A stretch of 64,000 bases of DNA from Naegleria gruberi (Eukaryota), in assembly GCA_000004985.1 (NCBI GenBank), contig GG738862.1. The stretch is one strand, 5' to 3'. The notes beneath the pieces are model-generated. The model was not told the origin of the DNA, ran no database searches, and saw only the letters and a list, made by a program, of their open reading frames with translations. Below are positions 1 through 51,738 of this stretch, piece by piece. A program made the translations under genes and the position numbers. Within the stretch, counting starts at the first letter, position 1; every line of letters begins with the position of its first letter.

Positions 1-404
1 TCTGATTTTCCTTCTCTATTCTTCATAATTTCTGGTCTTATTTTCTCGATGTGTTCCTTTAATAATTTACTGTATGGATTATTTTCCAAATTTTTCGAAT
101 GTTTTGGATTATTTCTAATAAGATACATGGCAATCCAATTAATCGGATCGATCTTTGAGTAGATAGTACTCTTTAATTTTTCATATTCTTGTTCCTCTTC
201 CGATTTCGGATCAACTGTTGAATACTCCTTTAATAAGGATTGAAAAGCAGGAATCAGCACTCCCAAAATATTTTCCTCCAAATAAAACGACAGCTCATCG
301 CCACCCTCCCGAGCCAATCTAATGGTTGTTTCATCCTCTCCGAGCGATTCCTCAACATGAAAATTGTATTCGTGATGAAGAGGCGAAGCAAAGTGCTTTT
401 TCAT
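1..404 (-). CDS. Partial CDS whose 3' part lies beyond the window start. Hypothetical protein with a Dpy-30/RIIa-like docking motif near the window edge.
   Basis: Reverse complement of 1-404 is one open frame starting at the ATG at 404..402 (MKKHFASPLHHEYNFHVEESLGEDETTIRLAREGGDELSFYLEENILGVLIPAFQSLL...PINWIAMYLIRNNPKH...) and has no stop before position 1. The track omits it because it runs off the edge. The + ORF 240..428 is antisense to it and low-complexity. Confidence 0.45.
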   Translation of the reverse strand, partial: MKKHFASPLHHEYNFHVEESLGEDETTIRLAREGGDELSFYLEENILGVLIPAFQSLLKEYSTVDPKSEEEQEYEKLKSTIYSKIDPINWIAMYLIRNNPKHSKNLENNPYSKLLKEHIEKIRPEIMKNREGKS

Positions 405-559
405 TTTTTTAAATTATTTTTATCGTAGTTATTTTTGGCGCCATTTTAGTCAATCTGAATGGTAATTAGTTTAAGATCATAAAATATTAGAATTCAAAGA
501 AGTAAGCGAGCGAGTGATAAATATTTTCATTTTGTTTGCCCACTACCCGCTCATTTTTG

Positions 560-760
560 TTGACGCATGTTTTGACGATTTTATAGTCATGAATGACGCC
601 TTTGTTTATGCTTGTTAAGGTGTCATTGGGACGGTGTTGTGGACGTCAAAATGACGTTTTTTTTCGTCATTTTGACGGTGTCAATTTGAGAGTCATTAAG
701 ACGTCAAAAAAAGCGTCCTCAATGACGTCTCAAAAAGTGTCTCCAATGACGTTGCAGAAT
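560..760. repeat. Subterminal cluster of about 10 TGACG / GACGTC (CRE-like half-sites and palindromes) inside the left arm of the TIR element. A matching cluster lies at 4470-4525.
   Basis: ttgacg, ttgacg, aatgacg, ggacgtc, aatgacg, cgtcat, ttgacgg, agacgtc, aatgacgtc and caatgacg occur within 200 bp. Right arm: cgtcagcgatgacgtcaaaaaaagcgtc...aatgacg. Confidence 0.5.
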
Positions 761-1096
761 GATTATTAATTTTTGATAAATTGAAATTTTATTGAACTAT
801 TCATAATTCTTACAAGTTGGAAATCTTTCATCTTGAACCATTTCACACTGAGTGAAACTCAATGCTGTGAAAGATTCACACCGTGTGAATTAATATTGTA
901 AAAGATTTCACACCATCAAAGATGACAAGGAAATTGACAAGAGTTTCTTATAAAAACGTGAAATAAAAATTTGAATTGATATGTCTTGTAAACGAATTGA
1001 AATGATGTAATATAATTGATAACTGATACGACTTACTAGTATGTTGAGGTATTTTTTTTGAAAAATATTTAAACTGGTGCAAAAATAGAAAGTGTT

Positions 1097-3838
1097 NNNN
1101 NNNNNNNNNNNNNNNNNNNNNNNNNNNNNNNNNNNNNNNNNNNNNNNNNNNNNNNNNNNNNNNNNNNNNNNNNNNNNNNNNNNNNNNNNNNNNNNNNNNN
1201 NNNNNNNNNNNNNNNNNNNNNNNNNNNNNNNNNNNNNNNNNNNNNNNNNNNNNNNNNNNNNNNNNNNNNNNNNNNNNNNNNNNNNNNNNNNNNNNNNNNN
1301 NNNNNNNNNNNNNNNNNNNNNNNNNNNNNNNNNNNNNNNNNNNNNNNNNNNNNNNNNNNNNNNNNNNNNNNNNNNNNNNNNNNNNNNNNNNNNNNNNNNN
1401 NNNNNNNNNNNNNNNNNNNNNNNNNNNNNNNNNNNNNNNNNNNNNNNNNNNNNNNNNNNNNNNNNNNNNNNNNNNNNNNNNNNNNNNNNNNNNNNNNNNN
1501 NNNNNNNNNNNNNNNNNNNNNNNNNNNNNNNNNNNNNNNNNNNNNNNNNNNNNNNNNNNNNNNNNNNNNNNNNNNNNNNNNNNNNNNNNNNNNNNNNNNN
1601 NNNNNNNNNNNNNNNNNNNNNNNNNNNNNNNNNNNNNNNNNNNNNNNNNNNNNNNNNNNNNNNNNNNNNNNNNNNNNNNNNNNNNNNNNNNNNNNNNNNN
1701 NNNNNNNNNNNNNNNNNNNNNNNNNNNNNNNNNNNNNNNNNNNNNNNNNNNNNNNNNNNNNNNNNNNNNNNNNNNNNNNNNNNNNNNNNNNNNNNNNNNN
1801 NNNNNNNNNNNNNNNNNNNNNNNNNNNNNNNNNNNNNNNNNNNNNNNNNNNNNNNNNNNNNNNNNNNNNNNNNNNNNNNNNNNNNNNNNNNNNNNNNNNN
1901 NNNNNNNNNNNNNNNNNNNNNNNNNNNNNNNNNNNNNNNNNNNNNNNNNNNNNNNNNNNNNNNNNNNNNNNNNNNNNNNNNNNNNNNNNNNNNNNNNNNN
2001 NNNNNNNNNNNNNNNNNNNNNNNNNNNNNNNNNNNNNNNNNNNNNNNNNNNNNNNNNNNNNNNNNNNNNNNNNNNNNNNNNNNNNNNNNNNNNNNNNNNN
2101 NNNNNNNNNNNNNNNNNNNNNNNNNNNNNNNNNNNNNNNNNNNNNNNNNNNNNNNNNNNNNNNNNNNNNNNNNNNNNNNNNNNNNNNNNNNNNNNNNNNN
2201 NNNNNNNNNNNNNNNNNNNNNNNNNNNNNNNNNNNNNNNNNNNNNNNNNNNNNNNNNNNNNNNNNNNNNNNNNNNNNNNNNNNNNNNNNNNNNNNNNNNN
2301 NNNNNNNNNNNNNNNNNNNNNNNNNNNNNNNNNNNNNNNNNNNNNNNNNNNNNNNNNNNNNNNNNNNNNNNNNNNNNNNNNNNNNNNNNNNNNNNNNNNN
2401 NNNNNNNNNNNNNNNNNNNNNNNNNNNNNNNNNNNNNNNNNNNNNNNNNNNNNNNNNNNNNNNNNNNNNNNNNNNNNNNNNNNNNNNNNNNNNNNNNNNN
2501 NNNNNNNNNNNNNNNNNNNNNNNNNNNNNNNNNNNNNNNNNNNNNNNNNNNNNNNNNNNNNNNNNNNNNNNNNNNNNNNNNNNNNNNNNNNNNNNNNNNN
2601 NNNNNNNNNNNNNNNNNNNNNNNNNNNNNNNNNNNNNNNNNNNNNNNNNNNNNNNNNNNNNNNNNNNNNNNNNNNNNNNNNNNNNNNNNNNNNNNNNNNN
2701 NNNNNNNNNNNNNNNNNNNNNNNNNNNNNNNNNNNNNNNNNNNNNNNNNNNNNNNNNNNNNNNNNNNNNNNNNNNNNNNNNNNNNNNNNNNNNNNNNNNN
2801 NNNNNNNNNNNNNNNNNNNNNNNNNNNNNNNNNNNNNNNNNNNNNNNNNNNNNNNNNNNNNNNNNNNNNNNNNNNNNNNNNNNNNNNNNNNNNNNNNNNN
2901 NNNNNNNNNNNNNNNNNNNNNNNNNNNNNNNNNNNNNNNNNNNNNNNNNNNNNNNNNNNNNNNNNNNNNNNNNNNNNNNNNNNNNNNNNNNNNNNNNNNN
3001 NNNNNNNNNNNNNNNNNNNNNNNNNNNNNNNNNNNNNNNNNNNNNNNNNNNNNNNNNNNNNNNNNNNNNNNNNNNNNNNNNNNNNNNNNNNNNNNNNNNN
3101 NNNNNNNNNNNNNNNNNNNNNNNNNNNNNNNNNNNNNNNNNNNNNNNNNNNNNNNNNNNNNNNNNNNNNNNNNNNNNNNNNNNNNNNNNNNNNNNNNNNN
3201 NNNNNNNNNNNNNNNNNNNNNNNNNNNNNNNNNNNNNNNNNNNNNNNNNNNNNNNNNNNNNNNNNNNNNNNNNNNNNNNNNNNNNNNNNNNNNNNNNNNN
3301 NNNNNNNNNNNNNNNNNNNNNNNNNNNNNNNNNNNNNNNNNNNNNNNNNNNNNNNNNNNNNNNNNNNNNNNNNNNNNNNNNNNNNNNNNNNNNNNNNNNN
3401 NNNNNNNNNNNNNNNNNNNNNNNNNNNNNNNNNNNNNNNNNNNNNNNNNNNNNNNNNNNNNNNNNNNNNNNNNNNNNNNNNNNNNNNNNNNNNNNNNNNN
3501 NNNNNNNNNNNNNNNNNNNNNNNNNNNNNNNNNNNNNNNNNNNNNNNNNNNNNNNNNNNNNNNNNNNNNNNNNNNNNNNNNNNNNNNNNNNNNNNNNNNN
3601 NNNNNNNNNNNNNNNNNNNNNNNNNNNNNNNNNNNNNNNNNNNNNNNNNNNNNNNNNNNNNNNNNNNNNNNNNNNNNNNNNNNNNNNNNNNNNNNNNNNN
3701 NNNNNNNNNNNNNNNNNNNNNNNNNNNNNNNNNNNNNNNNNNNNNNNNNNNNNNNNNNNNNNNNNNNNNNNNNNNNNNNNNNNNNNNNNNNNNNNNNNNN
3801 NNNNNNNNNNNNNNNNNNNNNNNNNNNNNNNNNNNNNN
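1097..3838. other. Assembly gap (2742 N).
   Basis: Run of n characters. The 1012/976/935-aa ORFs spanning it are poly-X artefacts. Confidence 0.99.
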
Positions 3839-3895
3839 CGTTAATGGAAAACGGGAATATGTGATTGTTCCAGAGCATGTCGATTCATCTTTGAT

Positions 3896-4240
3896 TTGAT
3901 AGATAAGGACAAAGCTTTTCCAGAGTTCATCAATGCCATTATCCAATGTGAAAAGGTATTAACTGACCTCACAAAAAGGTTTGCTCATCTATTTTCAGGG
4001 CTTGCATTCAACACTACCGTAAATGGTATAACTTATTCAATTCCTCCAGACATTATCAAAATGCTTATTGGTAATGTGACTCAAAAACAGTGCTTGGAAT
4101 TGTTAGCACATCATCACTTCAAGAAACCTATAGGAGAACTCACAACTGATCAAAGAACAGTATGTAGAAAGTTCTTTGAAGCAAGGGGATGGGATAAAGA
4201 AAGTGTTCGGAAGGCAATCAATAGTTTGATCAAAGAATAA
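3896..4240 (+). CDS. ORF in the right arm of the TIR element (114 aa). Possibly the C-terminal remnant of the element-encoded protein; function unknown.
   Basis: Open frame MIDKDKAFPEFINAIIQCEKVLTDL...FFEARGWDKESVRKAINSLIKE lies just inside the right TIR and subterminal repeats. The upstream part is lost in the gap. No motif recognised. Confidence 0.25.
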   Translation: MIDKDKAFPEFINAIIQCEKVLTDLTKRFAHLFSGLAFNTTVNGITYSIPPDIIKMLIGNVTQKQCLELLAHHHFKKPIGELTTDQRTVCRKFFEARGWDKESVRKAINSLIKE

Positions 4241-4557
4241 TTTCTAGACATGATGTTAAGCTTGATGAACAAGTCAAGCTTGTGAAATTTGTATTTTTTT
4301 TTTAAAATTTTCAAAAATATTCACAAGTCTGAAATACGTCACCTCCTCCTTCACTGATTTTCATCATCAAAACAACACAAAACAAACAACAACAAATAAA
4401 CAACACATTACAACATCAAGTAGAACACAACAGAATATCGATAATTAACTTTGGAGTAACTTTATGCAAAATCGTCAGCGATGACGTCAAAAAAAGCGTC
4501 AATCCACCATCAGGAATGACGAAATAAAATGAGCGGGTAAATAATTAACCAAAAAAA

Positions 4558-6165
4558 ATGACTCTACACAAAAGTACTCTTATTCGAAACAATAGTTTAT
4601 TTCCCGATGATATTTGTTTCGAAATTATAGATTACTTTGATTCTCCATTTATCATCAAAACATGTTCTTTAATTTCACATCAATTTTTACGTGTCATAAA
4701 ATTATATTCGAATCTTGTGGTCAATTTCCGAATGATTACTTCAGAACAAATTAATCAATTTTCAAAAAGTCAATTTTTAGGAAATATAAGAAAGGTTAGA
4801 ATAGCAAGTCATCAAATTGAAGGAGAAATAGGTGTTAAATTATTGGAAACTTTATCAGAAATGAAAAATTTAACCTATTTGAATATTGATTGGAATAAAA
4901 TTTCAGAAAAGTCTAAAATTATTCTTTCTGGAATGAAACACTTGAAAATACTTGCTGCTAGCGGATCTGAAATTGATAAATTTAGTCGATTGGATCAATT
5001 GACTGAACTAAATGTCAATTGGAATCGTTTAAAAGATGAAGATGTAGAATCTATTGGAAATTTGAAAAATTTAACTTTATTAGAATTGAGTGGAAATGAA
5101 ATTTCTAAAAATTCAATGAAATTTATTAGTCAGCTCTCAGAATTAACAAAACTTTCTGTGGGATTGAATTCAATTGAAAATGAAGGAATCAATTCAATAA
5201 TCAATCTTTCAAAATTGACTTGTCTAAACATTATTAATGCAAATATTACTTCAGAAGGTGTCAAATTAATTGGAAAACTATCAAACTTAACCATTCTCGA
5301 TATTAGTGGAAATTTAATTGGTGCTGAAGGAGGTCAATACATTGGAGAATTGAAGAATCTCAAAACACTTGTGGCAAGTGATAATGAACTTGGAGTGCTT
5401 GGAGCAAAGAGCATTGGAGAAATGAATCAATTAACTTCACTTTGTTTGATAGGCAATTCTATTGGAAATGAAGGAGCCAAGTATATTTCTCAATTAAGCC
5501 AATTGACTGATCTTGATTTGGGAAAAAATGAAATAGGTGATGAAGGATTTAAACTACTAGCAAAACTTGAAAAGTTGACAAATTTAGATTTGGTTTCTAA
5601 TAACATTTCTGATTTGAGTTCGACTGGTCAATTGGGTTTATTAAACTGCCTTGATGTCAGAAAAAACAAAATAGAGGACAAGGGCATAAGAAATATTTGT
5701 CAATTGAGTGGATTGCAATCACTTCGTCTTTGCGCAAATCCAATCACTTCAGAAGGAGCCAAAATATTATCAGAAATGGTTCAATTGACCAATTTATCAA
5801 TAAGTGAGACCCATATCGATGACGAAGGAGCCAAATTTATAGCACAATTGACAACTCTGAAATATCTTGATATAAGTACTAAAAGAATAACCGCGAATGG
5901 TGTCAAATTTATTTGCCAATTATCGAAACTAATCTCACTCGATATTAATTGGAATAATATTGGAGATGAGGGAGTGTTATATATTAGCAGAATGCAACAA
6001 TTAGAAACACTAAATGCTGTTTATTGTAATATTGGATTGGAAGGCGCAAAACTCTTGAGTGAAATGGAACAATTGACCGTACTTGATGTGAAAATTAACA
6101 GGATACCTGGAGAGGGAATTCAATTATTAGAAAATATTGCACGATTTAAATCATTAGTTGTGTAA
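4558..6165 (+). CDS. F-box-like N-terminus plus about 18 RNI-type leucine-rich repeats (535 aa).
   Basis: N-terminus FPDDICFEIIDYFDSPFIIKTCSLISHQFLRVI is F-box-like. It is followed by repeated units of about 24-28 aa such as LTxLxLxxNxIGxEGAKxIxxLxxL (GNEGAKYISQL, GDEGFKLLAKL, TSEGAKILSEM). The ATG is at 4558 and the stop is TAA. Confidence 0.75.
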   Translation: MTLHKSTLIRNNSLFPDDICFEIIDYFDSPFIIKTCSLISHQFLRVIKLYSNLVVNFRMITSEQINQFSKSQFLGNIRKVRIASHQIEGEIGVKLLETLSEMKNLTYLNIDWNKISEKSKIILSGMKHLKILAASGSEIDKFSRLDQLTELNVNWNRLKDEDVESIGNLKNLTLLELSGNEISKNSMKFISQLSELTKLSVGLNSIENEGINSIINLSKLTCLNIINANITSEGVKLIGKLSNLTILDISGNLIGAEGGQYIGELKNLKTLVASDNELGVLGAKSIGEMNQLTSLCLIGNSIGNEGAKYISQLSQLTDLDLGKNEIGDEGFKLLAKLEKLTNLDLVSNNISDLSSTGQLGLLNCLDVRKNKIEDKGIRNICQLSGLQSLRLCANPITSEGAKILSEMVQLTNLSISETHIDDEGAKFIAQLTTLKYLDISTKRITANGVKFICQLSKLISLDINWNNIGDEGVLYISRMQQLETLNAVYCNIGLEGAKLLSEMEQLTVLDVKINRIPGEGIQLLENIARFKSLVV

Positions 6166-7635: not shown

Positions 7636-7803
7636 TATTTCATAACATAAATCATCAATTATTTCTAATAATTTTTTCGTTTTCTTTCCAATAATTTTCG
7701 AATAAAACTACCAACCTCCTTGTCTACTGTTGGCTACAACCAAATCTTCATCACGTTCTTCATTCAAATCACGTTCTTGCATTTTTTTCAATGAAAAACG
7801 ACG

Positions 7804-8325
7804 ATGAAAAAAATACCTCAACAAGACCATCCTCCGGATACGGAAGGGAGTAATTTGCTTGCTGACAGGATTTTTGTGTTAGAGAGAGCAATTGAAACCT
7901 ACCAAAAGGAAAACAATAATCTCCGTGACTATCTTCAACAACTTGTAAATATATGTAATGGTCACCCGTTATTGAATAATAATAATAATAATCCCATCAA
8001 ACCTGTAAATAATAATCTGATCAATACCCAACCATCAGAAAATGAAAATCTATTTATTACTAGAAATCCAGTAAATGTTAGAAATCTACCAACTAGTAGA
8101 AATTTAATTAATGGTGGAAATTTCTTGACTGAGACAGTTCAAATATGCGATAGTAATCCTAAAAATAGAACTGTCAGTTATGCTGATATTACAAGATTAG
8201 CTCCTATTAAAGCTCAGCCATCTATTAAGAAAACAATAGCAAAACAAAAATCAACAACTAATAAGATGAAAAGAAATATGGCAACTAATACTAGACCTAA
8301 CAAACGTAAATCGAGAGTATATTAA
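7804..8325 (+). pseudogene. LINE ORF1 (copy A), terminated prematurely by the MITE insertion at 8313.
   Basis: [47 protein letters not shown]... is identical to the first about 170 aa of the 9275.. ORF. It then reads into the MITE (RVY stop). The uninterrupted sequence resumes at 8735. Confidence 0.6.
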
Positions 8326-8726
8326 TATCCAATATCTATCCCAAACCGCTTTTTTTGGATATGGCTTTTTAAAAAGGGCAATCTGGCTAAATTTTTACGG
8401 GCTTGGCTTTTTGGATAAATCTTGGATTGGATAATATTATTTGAAAATGTGTCGTGTTTGAGCAATTGTCAACAAGGAATGCAGGCAAATCACTCTACGA
8501 ATATTTATTAGATTATTATCAATACTAATTGCAATAAATCAACAATTTTTCGATATAAATTTGGAATAATTTATTTTTGAAATAATTCATTTTTTAGTGG
8601 AAATTTCTTGACTTATTTTTGGATTTAGGTTTTGGCTTTTTGGTTCAATTTGGCTTTTTGCCGATTTTTTATTCACCTATATCCAAAAACTGGTTTGGGA
8701 TGGATTTTGGATATTAATATACTCTC
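8313..8726. mobile_element. 414-bp non-autonomous foldback element (MITE) with perfect 20-bp TIRs GAGAGTATATTAATATCCAA and an 8-bp target-site duplication CGTAAATC (8305-8312 and 8727-8734). This is hAT-like TSD length.
   Basis: Copy B of the same LINE has the uninterrupted site ...aacaaacgtaaatc|taattacaatc... at 9770-9790. Copy A reads cgtaaatc|gagagtatattaatatccaata...ttggatattaatatactctc|cgtaaatc|taattacaatc. The interior is AT-rich with internal symmetry (ccaaaccg...ggtttggg, ggctttttgg repeats). Confidence 0.75.
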
Positions 8727-8927
8727 CGTAAATCTAATTACAATCTTAATCAAATAATTAATGTAATTTGCTACAAAGATGTTACTAACGAATTTGTTGA
8801 ACAAATTACAGACCTACTCGGTGACTCTGTAATCATTAGAGTTAATCGATACTGTAATAATATTATTAATGTAATTTGCCCTGATGAAACCAGTTATAAA
8901 GAGTGTTTCAATCAATTAGTGCAAGGA

Positions 8928-8977
8928 NNNNNNNNNNNNNNNNNNNNNNNNNNNNNNNNNNNNNNNNNNNNNNNNNN
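8928..8977. other. Assembly gap (50 N).
   Basis: Run of n characters. Confidence 0.99.
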
Positions 8978-9254
8978 TTTTAGACAACATGTCAACATGT
9001 TCATCTTTGTAAATTCCTAAACATCCTGGTGAAATTCTACCAATATCCGAAACACCAGTGGCTTCTACAATAAATAAACCAGCTCCACCTACAATTCTAC
9101 TGCCAATATGTTGAACATGCCAGAAATTAGCAAATCCATCAACCGATGAGTACTGACACATTGGGGAGACGACAATACGATTCTTTAAAGTCAATCCTCT
9201 AATTTTGAATGGTTGAAAGAGTGGAGGAACGGATGAGATATCTTGTGCTGACAT
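8978..9254 (-). CDS. N-terminal fragment of an NADH:flavin oxidoreductase of the old-yellow-enzyme family (YqjM-like class). It is truncated by the gap and its ATG abuts the LINE 5' end.
   Basis: [92 protein letters not shown] matches the conserved OYE/YqjM N-terminal beta-alpha barrel start ([26 protein letters not shown]...GGAGLIIVEATAVxPxGRISPxDLGIW.DEH). Confidence 0.6.
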
Positions 9255-9274
9255 TTTTTTAATGGTTGTCGACG

Positions 9275-10247
9275 ATGAAAAAAATACCTCAACAAGACCA
9301 TCCTCCGGATACGGAAGGGAGTAATTTGCTTGCTGACAGGATTTTTGTGTTAGAGAGAGCAATTGAAACCTACCAAAAGGAAAACAATAATCTCCGTGAC
9401 TATCTTCAACAACTTGTAAATATATGTAATGGTCACCCGTTATTGAATAATAATAATAATAATCCCATCAAACCTGTAAATAATAATCTGATCAATACCC
9501 AACCATCAGAAAATGAAAATCTATTTATTACTAGAAATCCAGTAAATGTTAGAAATCTACCAACTAGTAGAAATTTAATTAATGGTGGAAATTTCTTGAC
9601 TGAGACAGTTCAAATATGCGATAGTAATCCTAAAAATAGAACTGTCAGTTATGCTGATATTACAAGATTAGCTCCTATTAAAGCTCAGCCATCTATTAAG
9701 AAAACAATAGCAAAACAAAAATCAACAACTAATAAGATGAAAAGAAATATGGCAACTAATACTAGACCTAACAAACGTAAATCTAATTACAATCTTAATC
9801 AAATAATTAATGTAATTTGCTACAAAGATGTTACTAACGAATTTGTTGAACAAATTACAGACCTACTCGGTGACTCTGTAATCATTAGAGTTAATCGATA
9901 CTGTAATAATATTATTAATGTAATTTGCCCTGATGAAACCAGTTATAAAGAGTGTTTCAATCAATTAGTGCAAGGAAGTCATGGAGGAAAATTCATATTA
10001 GAATGCTTTCCATCTCCAGCAATCTTTAATCCTAAACCTTTAGCACTTTCACATACTACTTCCAGTAAAACTACTCACCTTAAAATGCTAGAAAATATTA
10101 TTAGCAAATGTATATTGGAAGATAATATTTCTGTTGAGGAACTCTACACTAACTATTCTCATAACCAATTTATAATTAGAATATCATTTGAGGATCAAAC
10201 TATTTGCTCTCAAATGGCACAAAATCTTGGTTTAAATCAATATAAAA
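9275..10247 (+). CDS. LINE ORF1 (copy B): N-terminal coiled-coil, poly-N, then an about 150-aa C-terminal domain. It runs into the 50-N gap.
   Basis: [47 protein letters not shown] (heptad-like) ... [63 protein letters not shown]... The architecture resembles L1-type ORF1p (coiled coil plus nucleic-acid-binding domain). This is an inference. Confidence 0.45.
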
Positions 10248-10297
10248 NNNNNNNNNNNNNNNNNNNNNNNNNNNNNNNNNNNNNNNNNNNNNNNNNN
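10248..10297. other. Assembly gap (50 N).
   Basis: Run of n characters. Confidence 0.99.
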
Positions 10298-49859: not shown

Positions 49860-50090
49860 TTTATTTCTTCTAATATTAAGGGGAGGCTCACACAACAAAC
49901 AAGTTAGGGGTTATAGTTAAGCTCCCTAAAACCACATTCTTGGAATCGATATCGGAGATGTGTAAATCTTGTCAAACTATCATCACTATTTCTGTTATTG
50001 TAATACACTGTTCAAAAATGTATTCAGTAGTCATTGATTTTCCTCTTTGACCAAAATTCAACACAAAATTCATATGGCTCGCCACGTTTA

Positions 50091-50161
50091 CCGTCTCGGG
50101 AGGAATCGAACCTCCGTCAATGGATTCAAAGTCCACTATGCTACCATTACACCACGAGACG
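50091..50161 (-). tRNA. tRNA-Gln (anticodon TTG), 71 nt, no intron.
   Basis: Minus strand: CGTCTCG TG GTGTAATGGTAGCAT AGTGGA CTTTGAA TCCAT TGAC GGAGG TTCGATT CCTCC CGAGACG G. The acceptor stem is a perfect 7 bp, the T-arm is GGAGG/CCTCC with a TTCGATT loop, and the layout is near-identical to eukaryotic tRNA-Gln. Confidence 0.8.
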
Positions 50162-51738
50162 AGCACATAGACGCTAAAATTCTTGTGTTGATATAACGCT
50201 ACCATTACGTCTGTTTTTTAATTGTTGCTGGAATCAGTTTCAATGACATTCAACCCTGTTGTAAAGTTAGGTCAATAAATATTGAATGCAAAGTTATAAC
50301 AAGGATTGGTCACATGATTGAACATCAGTTTCGAATTTTCTTTCAACTCGTTGTATACAACAGTTGTTTTAATAGAAGAATATTCTATCATATCCAAAAA
50401 GTTTAGTTTCCTTCCGAATGCATCAAAAAATACCAAATCCGGAGATTCTATTACTAAAAGTAAAATTTAGTAATTTGAATTTCAAAGTTGGTGCAAAAGT
50501 TCTGAAAATCAAGTACAGTTCCCTAATCGTTGAACACTGCATCAAAATTACCTCTATTGTAAATTGTCAACCCTTTCCTGCAAATATATCAACATTGTTT
50601 AGGTTGTCTTTGATTGAAATTTTACTCCCATTCACCAAAACAATATTTTTCATTCATTGGAATGCTCTTCCTTTTCAGTTTACAAATCATCCAAACTCTC
50701 TGCTTTCAATTTGAATATTAAATCATGAAATTTGTCAATTATTAATAACTTGAAGTCTATTGAAATGCAATTCACATGAATTACCTAACAAGTTGAATTG
50801 GTAATCAGACCTGCCATGTGTTGATGGAGATAACGAGGTCTGTGTTTCTCAATATCGACATCCAAAAATTCATCTTTTCAACGTTCATAATCAACACATT
50901 CATATGAATCATAACGAATCTTTCAACATGCATCAATGAAATCCACAATTTCACTTATTTAAATATTTGAAACTTAGTTGGCATTCTGCATTCTCTTTGA
51001 ACATTAAGTGGCGTTCATGGTTTTTCAAATCCACAAACGGAAAGGAAATCTATATTCCGGTTTATCGATAAACACCAAAACACTCTTCTTGTCTCATGTG
51101 TCAGCTATTGATTTTGGTACGATCACCGCTTTATTTACATGTTCCTTCTCATGTCAACTAGAAATGTCTTTATTGATACTTTCTACAGAGCAATAATTTT
51201 GAGAGAATCTTTGTAAGAGCACAATTGAGGCCATCATGTTGACTCTTATTGGACAATCTAAACTGAAATGGTTAGTTTGATAGCTTGTTTGTGATGTGAT
51301 GCATTTTCTCTTGTGAATCACAGAGAGGAGCGAGTTGTTATTATGGTCCAAAAACGCAAAACCACAGTCCAAATGAATAAAAGCCATGAACAATGCGACT
51401 TGTTACCTCAAAACAAATCAAAACAAATAACATCACACCCTGAAGCGAGTGCTAACAACGAACAGCCTTGTTTTCCGAAGCCTTTGAAAACTTATTCTCC
51501 CCAACACCCAATAATTGCTACAGGCTGATCCATCCTAAGATAAATTCTATTAGGTGTTATCACTCTACCAATTAATTCAATCTACCCTTTTAATTTATTA
51601 TCCACTTTATCGCGAGACGTCTCTCTTACACACACAAGTCCAAAGCCTTGATTGCGAGATACCAACCAACAACACCCAACCAACCTACACAACCGAATTT
51701 CCTCATCATCCAAAACAATATATTCACTAACAAAGAAA

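Follow-up and report, generated by a model that had tools for sequence, protein, structure and literature searches.

Proteins encoded by the En/Spm, Ac and P elements bind to subterminal repeats carried by the elements themselves, as in the case of Ac, in which the subterminal motif AAACGG is bound by the element's own protein. Upon integration, hAT elements make target-site duplications of 8 bp and P elements duplications of 7-8 bp. The transposons of Heterolobosea are poorly catalogued, and the mentions found for Naegleria gruberi are of Kolobok, with TTAA duplications (PMC9587614), PIF/Harbinger, and MuDRF, with 9-bp duplications (PMC3164196). None of these three (Kolobok, PIF_Harbinger-1_Ngru and MuDRF) fits the element described here, which occupies positions 546-4537 of a 64-kb stretch of N. 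gruberi DNA, hereafter the window, to which all counts and densities refer. We propose, with a probability of roughly 0.7, that this element is a copy of a class II (cut-and-paste type) DNA transposon present in low copy number in Naegleria. As a transposon it is of an ordinary kind, that is, a terminal inverted repeat element with subterminal repeats, whose proteins match no known family. The proposal builds on direct observations, namely the terminal repeats, the arrays of GACG motifs in both arms, the genes that the unit carries, and an end that is sharp in two unrelated genomic contexts.

The sharp end was revealed by comparison with a 2,967-bp Logan contig (L001, from run SRR28981358), which encodes P0002, a relative of the protein encoded by the plus-strand gene of the element. 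Positions 2116-2813 of this contig align to 3839-4537 of the window at 78.4% identity, and the alignment ends in GAGCGGG, at the last base of the 12-nt terminal repeat. The identity is 79.7% over the coding segment and 52% in the 77 nt after the stop codon, and amounts to 82.7%, with no gaps, in the right terminal block, a non-coding segment of 220 nt (4318-4537), while beyond the repeat it is 31%, a random level. Since the 220-nt non-coding end is as conserved as the gene and the flank is random, this end is conserved together with the unit and not with the downstream gene. To judge from the alignment, a conserved non-coding block that ends to the base at the repeat has the appearance of a transposon end. 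Past this boundary the window continues with TA, 18 nt and the ATG of a leucine-rich repeat (LRR) gene, and L001 continues with AACTGTCAAGG... In the remainder of the contig (2814-2967), a trypsin-like open reading frame (ORF; …HPAYSAKTLDNDI) begins abruptly at the element boundary, roughly where the catalytic-His motif would lie. The frame, already open at the junction, lacks an ATG, reaches its stop 7 codons inside the element and matches profile positions 47-89 of Pfam Trypsin with an E of 0.005, under the cut-off. Because this frame lacks a start and stops inside the element, the unit in L001 lies within, or cuts into, another gene, and by its sequence the trypsin-like ORF resembles a host gene that the element has split. 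The right end is therefore seen in two unrelated contexts, next to the LRR gene in the window and next to a truncated trypsin-like ORF in L001. A sequence-only reading of this DNA had already proposed a DNA transposon bounded by an inverted repeat, and this proposal gains support from L001, which shares the gene and the 220-nt end and in which the similarity is lost at the edge of the repeat.

An alternative explanation would be a resident, non-mobile host locus, composed of a lineage-specific gene or gene pair and of a conserved 3' regulatory block rich in cAMP-response-element-like (CRE-like) TGACGTCA sites. In such a locus, the inverted match would be due to chance or would represent a cis-element shared by the outward genes, and the different neighbor in L001 would be due to ordinary erosion of synteny from one species to another. 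Several observations are in accordance with this possibility: chance alone would give a window about 5 exact 14-mer inverted pairs within 5 kb, the searches revealed no transposase domain, the members of the family number only 2-3, and AAAATGAGCGGGTA reads towards the outer gene on both sides, 140 and 18 nt before the ATG, as a promoter element might. Nevertheless, we consider a resident locus unlikely, since the similarity to L001 breaks off at the exact edge of the repeat with no gradual decay, and the genes that come after the conserved block in the two contexts are unrelated, the ORF in L001 having no start. Likewise, the motif cluster and the 14-mer are not found upstream of the other ~35 genes of the window, and the gene was found in no non-Naegleria proteome or further Naegleria sequence among 1.84 billion representatives.

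At the termini of the element, TACCCGCTCATTTT (544-557) is matched exactly by its reverse complement at 4526-4539; the match is not extendable on either side, and the window holds no third copy at up to 2 mismatches. Both arms are thus located where an exact 14-bp inverted repeat had been reported, and TA is present on both outer flanks, at 544-545 and 4538-4539, as had also been reported. These two nucleotides make up the outer two positions of both arms, and at the equivalent right-hand position L001 has AA. The inner 12 nt constitute the left terminal inverted repeat, CCCGCTCATTTT (546-557, plus strand), an exact inverted match to the right one (4526-4537, minus strand; AAAATGAGCGGG on the plus strand), and the similarity to L001 stops at 4537. 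Both TAs are candidates for a target-site duplication of 2 bp; alternatively, the left TA would simply be the two outermost nucleotides of the inverted repeat. No duplication longer than 2 bp fits the element of the window; a 3-bp duplication is ruled out here because CTA stands against TAA, and nothing fits at 8-9 bp. From the flank sequences, the empty site (element absent) is predicted to read ...cccacTAaataatt..., also as ...gtttgcccacTAaataattaacc... The left flank (caCTAccc) contains CACTA at 541-545, and a CACTA reading was rejected, as the right end is without TAGTG.

The window contains 13 distinct exact 14-mer inverted pairs within 5 kb, against a mean of 5.4 in shuffled sequence. 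Outside the repeat, the arms show no collinearity and share motif content only, with the observed score reached in 12 of 500 shuffles; collinear homology of the arms was considered and rejected, motifs being all that they have in common. As chance pairs are common and the arms are not collinear, the inverted repeat alone cannot carry the transposon reading. The sequence-only reading had further suggested, on weak evidence, the Tc1/mariner-pogo type, which would imply a TA-specific duplication and a single hidden DD(E/D) transposase. The short inverted repeats, and the TA on both sides of the 12-nt repeats in the window copy, are what would be expected from such an element, but in L001 the flank is AA rather than TA, and the element has two divergent genes, neither of which matches a Tc1/mariner or pogo domain. 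In fact, no Pfam match to a Tc1/mariner or pogo DD(E/D) transposase, a paired-like helix-turn-helix or CENP-B was obtained in the visible ORFs of the element. The element also differs in its subterminal arrays; to our knowledge, Tc1/mariner-pogo elements are not characterized by dense subterminal motif arrays. In addition, TA duplications are not exclusive to them, being also made by the PHISTA, ESTA and PlavakaA lineages (PMC12730594). Assignment to the Tc1/mariner-pogo type is consequently highly improbable.

The second structural feature of the element is the pair of subterminal arrays. The left array (558-770) comprises 10 GACG and 5 CGTC, most of them within TGACG or GACGTCA; the motifs occur in either orientation and are phased at multiples of 12 nt. 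In the right array (4466-4525, CGTCAGCGATGACGTCAAAAAAAGCGTCA...TGACG) the GACG copies are spaced by 12 and 12 nt, and 3 of the 4 copies are conserved in L001. Counted inwards from the left end, GACG is found at positions 17, 29, 50, 85, 97, 108, 129, 155, 179 and 203, and counted from the right end at 38, 50 and 62, with CGTC interspersed in both arms. The density in 551-750 (15 GACG/CGTC per 200 nt, against a window mean of 0.36) is the highest in the 64 kb, and the cluster is far beyond chance; the right arm has at most 5 per 200 nt and 5-6 motifs in all. In the left arm, GACG copies on the same strand are 12, 24 or 36 nt apart in 7 instances, where 1.3 are expected (P ~8e-4, for a spacing picked post hoc), and the spacings in the right arm are 12, 12 and 24 nt. 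An earlier count of about 8-10 TGACG/GACGTC motifs per arm is corrected to 7 TGACG, 3 CGTCA and 3 GACGTC for the left arm and is too high for the right, which has 2 TGACG and 4 CGTCA. The 18-nt block common to both arms, gacgtcaaaaaaagcgtc, does exist in exact copies (700-717 and 4483-4500), which form a direct and not an inverted repeat. The perfect palindromes earlier placed at 845-925 are likewise real and are found at 841-857 (tttcac/gtgaaa) and 874-890 (attcacac/gtgtgaat). These two short palindromes belong to a second motif set (841-914), in which TTCACAC occurs three times (842, 875 and 907) with inverted copies, and which has a fold z-score of -2.3.

Upstream of the other ~35 genes of the window neither a comparable GACG cluster nor the 14-mer was found, and the next-densest GACG/CGTC spots are a tRNA-Gln (TTG) gene (50090-50162, minus strand), which accounts for one minor density peak, and coding sequence. 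The lack of a GACG cluster in the other intergenic regions argues against a general Naegleria promoter motif. Moreover, as both genes of the element face outwards, the arrays lie at their 3' ends and are not the element's own promoters. By analogy with the repeats of En/Spm, Ac and P, the GACG arrays would fit best as phased binding sites for a protein of the element, which may be at least as good an explanation as bZIP-type sites serving the promoter of the LRR gene.

The interior of the element is hidden by an N-run of 2,742 nt (1097-3838), the expected content of which was derived from L001 and from a second N. gruberi protein. At its right edge, the C-terminal 133 codons and the stop of the plus-strand gene are found at 3840-4240. 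This ORF is 99% identical to NAEGRDRAFT_58999 (P0001, 221 aa) of N. gruberi, which reaches 88 residues further upstream, with the codon of His88 split at the N boundary. Residues 1-88 of P0001 are encoded nowhere else in the window, and real coding sequence therefore lies under the N-run. NAEGRDRAFT_82336 (P0004, EFC35873.1, 476 aa), which is encoded on a separate 12,976-bp scaffold and falls in the same 90% cluster, is 99% identical to P0001 and has 255 extra N-terminal residues, so that the 221-aa NAEGRDRAFT_58999 represents a truncated gene model and the full length of the protein is 476 aa. The ORF at 3896-4240, previously considered as a possible C-terminus of a transposase, is in fact the C-terminus of this 476-aa orphan, which has an acidic, serine-rich linker and matches no Pfam family.

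An exhaustive HMMER search of 1.84 billion representative proteins found one other relative of the orphan, P0002 (489 aa, 67% identity), and the gene was found in neither a non-Naegleria proteome nor any further Naegleria sequence in that set. A word-index search and a profile search of 5.8 billion clusters gave no relatives beyond P0001/P0004 and P0002, and scans of metagenome and viral contigs with the protein alignments and with the second ORF of L001 gave none. A candidate for a third homologue, P0003, was rejected as a spurious match to a repeat adhesin. Structure prediction reached a predicted local distance difference test score (pLDDT) of 52 for P0001 and 34 for P0004, and a Foldseek comparison of the models with the PDB returned nothing below an E of 0.2. 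Two stretches of P0004, residues 338-365 (YFQVRHVNGKREYVIVPEHVDYIFDLI) and 400-421 (FNTTVNGITYSIPPDIIKMLIG), are similar modules that correspond to 3840-3920 and ~4010-4075 of the window; each is predicted to form a beta-hairpin followed by a helix, which in these low-confidence models suggests an internal repeat.

Relative to both deposited proteins and to L001, the window is 1 nt short at 3885/3886. Positions 3882-3889, 45 nt from the N-run, read gattcatc, where the deposited proteins (VDYIFD) need gatTACatc and L001 has gactatatc. The missing base is due either to a frameshift in the window copy, to a sequencing error at the contig end or to a sequence version other than the one behind the GenBank proteins. 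Between 3887 and 4237 the mismatches to L001 are distributed evenly over the codon positions (23/18/24), full-length ORFs being intact elsewhere, and from this pattern the constraint on the C-terminal domain of the orphan protein appears relaxed or unusual. The N-run itself had been regarded as a sign of repetitive sequence, which agrees with the second, 99% identical gene copy on the 13-kb scaffold but not with the very small size of the family, the second copy being possibly the other allele.

In L001, an ORF divergent from the P0002 gene is found 55 bp upstream of it and is cut by the contig end after 337 codons. Its N-terminus is acidic and is followed by a Cys/His cluster, CRECKDFQHDAQHTHCSC, and then by LNGDGVSPF...ILPRKPDKIDIEIGL / ...NEMSPSNRKKSTNNFLWAILPRKPDKIDIEIGL, which includes a GDGVSPF motif. 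A comparison of these N-terminal 337 aa with Pfam gave only a sub-threshold match to DUF7082, and no match was obtained in PDB, NCBIfam or PHROGs, nor any relative in a word-index homology search. The succession D-G-x-x-P-F ... N-x-x-x-x-x-R-K-K ... I-L-P-x-x-P ... I-x-x-x-L in this ORF is what we take, as a lead only, to resemble the first-Asp region of EnSpm/Plavaka transposases; a looser likeness to the GxxDGTH...NRK region of PIF/Harbinger is presumably also arguable, such readings being weak. As no library backs either of them, the ORF is regarded as a candidate transposase and is assigned to no superfamily.

Accommodating such an ORF in the window is a matter of geometry. To judge from L001 and P0004, the sequence under the N-run should comprise the initial ~343 codons of the plus-strand gene, a spacer of ~55 bp and the divergent minus-strand ORF. 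Counting back 476 codons from 4240 would put the start of the plus-strand gene near 2810, and the remaining ~1.7-1.9 kb fits a minus-strand ORF of ~600 aa running towards 908, on the assumption that the length of the N-run is accurate. The sole open frame that leaves the N-run leftwards (908-1096, minus strand, 62 codons, stop at 908-910) has a composition like that of non-coding AT-rich sequence, and we infer that it may encode the C-terminal end of the hidden minus-strand gene product. Scans of Pfam, NCBIfam, PHROGs, PDB sequences and Rfam returned nothing usable for the element.

Among the known superfamilies, the CMCT clade (EnSpm/CACTA, Mirage, Chapaev, Transib, Plavaka and ESTA) shares with the element short terminal inverted repeats, two element proteins, and many copies of short subterminal motifs in both orientations and in both arms. 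The duplications of the clade measure 2-5 bp, and TA or 2 bp in ESTA and PlavakaA (PMC12730594); the TA found here is a candidate 2-bp duplication. In contrast, the termini of the element read 5'-CCCGC...GCGGG-3', whereas those of most CMCT lineages read 5'-CA...TG-3', and the CMCT tree is without a Naegleria family (PMC12730594). No Pfam match to Transposase_21 (tnp2) or Plavaka was obtained with the N-terminal 337 aa scanned, and the two genes of the element are divergent, unlike the products of En/Spm, which come from alternative splicing. The PIF/Harbinger-ISL2EU (PHIS) superfamily, known in N. gruberi from PIF_Harbinger-1_Ngru, resembles the element in its short inverted repeats and in its two-gene organization, in which a transposase is accompanied by a DNA-binding partner. 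PHIS duplications are of 3 bp (TWA), 2 bp (TA) or none (PMC12730594), of which the 3-bp form is excluded here by CTA against TAA. The element further differs from PHIS in that neither visible protein matches DDE_Tnp_4 or Plant_tran or contains a Myb/SANT domain; P0004, P0002 and the ORF of L001 gave no match to PHIS domains even at E values up to 10, the C-terminal half of the candidate transposase being unseen. Ac/hAT and P elements, which are functional analogues only, have in common with the element clustered short subterminal motifs that contain CpG, but no 7-8-bp duplication is seen here and no hAT or THAP domains were found.

In the anatomy that we propose, the element is delimited by 12-nt terminal inverted repeats, CCCGCTCATTTT, at both ends, with arrays of GACG (TGACG/GACGTCA) in both orientations, phased at about one helical turn, in both arms. 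On either side of a short central spacer, its two genes point away from each other; the one on the plus strand encodes the 476-aa orphan, and the one on the minus strand, hidden by the N-run, would encode the candidate transposase. One or both of these proteins may bind the phased GACG arrays and pair the ends, in analogy with En/Spm, Ac and P; the transposase would cut at the inverted repeats, and integration at a 2-bp staggered cut would yield the TA duplication. Transposase activity, a GACG-binding protein, the 2-bp duplication and present-day mobility would all follow from this model by analogy.

Several points weigh against the transposon proposal. Searches of Pfam, NCBIfam, PHROGs and PDB detected no transposase domain, a 14-nt inverted repeat is by itself within chance for the window, and the 2-bp TA match is weak evidence, the right flank in L001 beginning with AA. 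The second context covers the right end only, leaving the left end without a comparator, and L001, as a short-read contig, could be a chimera. The family is tiny, and the two N. gruberi copies could be alleles of one locus. Furthermore, the window copy carries the 1-nt frameshift, which may be a sign of decay or a contig-end sequencing error, and its evenly spread mismatches to L001 also suggest that it is perhaps decaying. One may also consider that the inverted repeat marks the edge of some other entity, such as a duplication (segmental or inverted) or part of a larger integrated element, virus-derived or recombinase-borne, whose end coincides with the repeat by accident, given that the interior is unseen, that the proteins are orphans and that the window contains further assembly duplications beside N-runs. 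However, terminal inverted repeats together with arrays in both arms are a specific transposon signature, no viral or phage family was matched and the unit is compact (4 kb), and this explanation is accordingly very unlikely.

With regard to its surroundings, the window is AT-rich (~33% G+C) and gene-dense, and the element lies between two divergently oriented host genes, both outside it. On the left is a Dpy-30-like gene (3-404, minus strand) with its ATG at 404 and its N-terminus in the window, which displays a weak match to Pfam Dpy-30 (E 7e-4). On the right is the LRR gene (4558-6165, plus strand), which encodes a protein of 535 aa with matches to Pfam LRR_6, LRR_8 and others, and whose ATG is fixed at 4558 by an in-frame TAA at 4546-4548. 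Subtracting the element leaves a host intergenic region of ~160 bp. The right repeat does lie close to the ATG of the LRR gene, as previously noticed, at a distance of 18 nt (20 if the TA is a duplication) and not of 19 bp. Elsewhere in the window, 7783-8927 and 9254-9976 contain near-identical direct duplicates (300 nt at 98% with an offset of 1471, and 201 nt at 100% with an offset of 1049) that abut gaps of 50 N at 8928-8977 and 10248-10297; they look like a two-haplotype assembly artefact or a recent tandem duplication. The longest hairpin-forming pair in the window is a perfect 23-nt inverted repeat with a gap of 52 nt (23616-23638/23691-23713; aacactttcgtaacctcctaaac ... gtttaggaggttacgaaagtgtt).

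For NAEGRDRAFT_58999 and NAEGRDRAFT_82336, annotation as transposon genes is probably more appropriate than annotation as host genes, and a two-gene element with proteins lacking relatives outside Naegleria among ~1.8 billion representatives would extend the catalogue of heterolobosean transposons by a family. Because of the very low copy number and the orphan proteins, it is conceivable, although doubtful, that the element represents an undescribed lineage, possibly a superfamily, so far restricted to Naegleria, whose ends are recognized through 12-nt-phased CRE-like GACG(TCA) arrays. Should the hidden ORF prove to be neither CMCT- nor PHIS-like, it would add a transposase lineage. Since the LRR gene retains only ~20 nt of its own upstream sequence, the locus provides a natural test of whether a transposon end in Naegleria can drive or silence its neighbor. 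If the reading as a new lineage is true, the arrays could, once inserted 20 nt ahead of a host gene, provide it with ready-made enhancers of the bZIP type.

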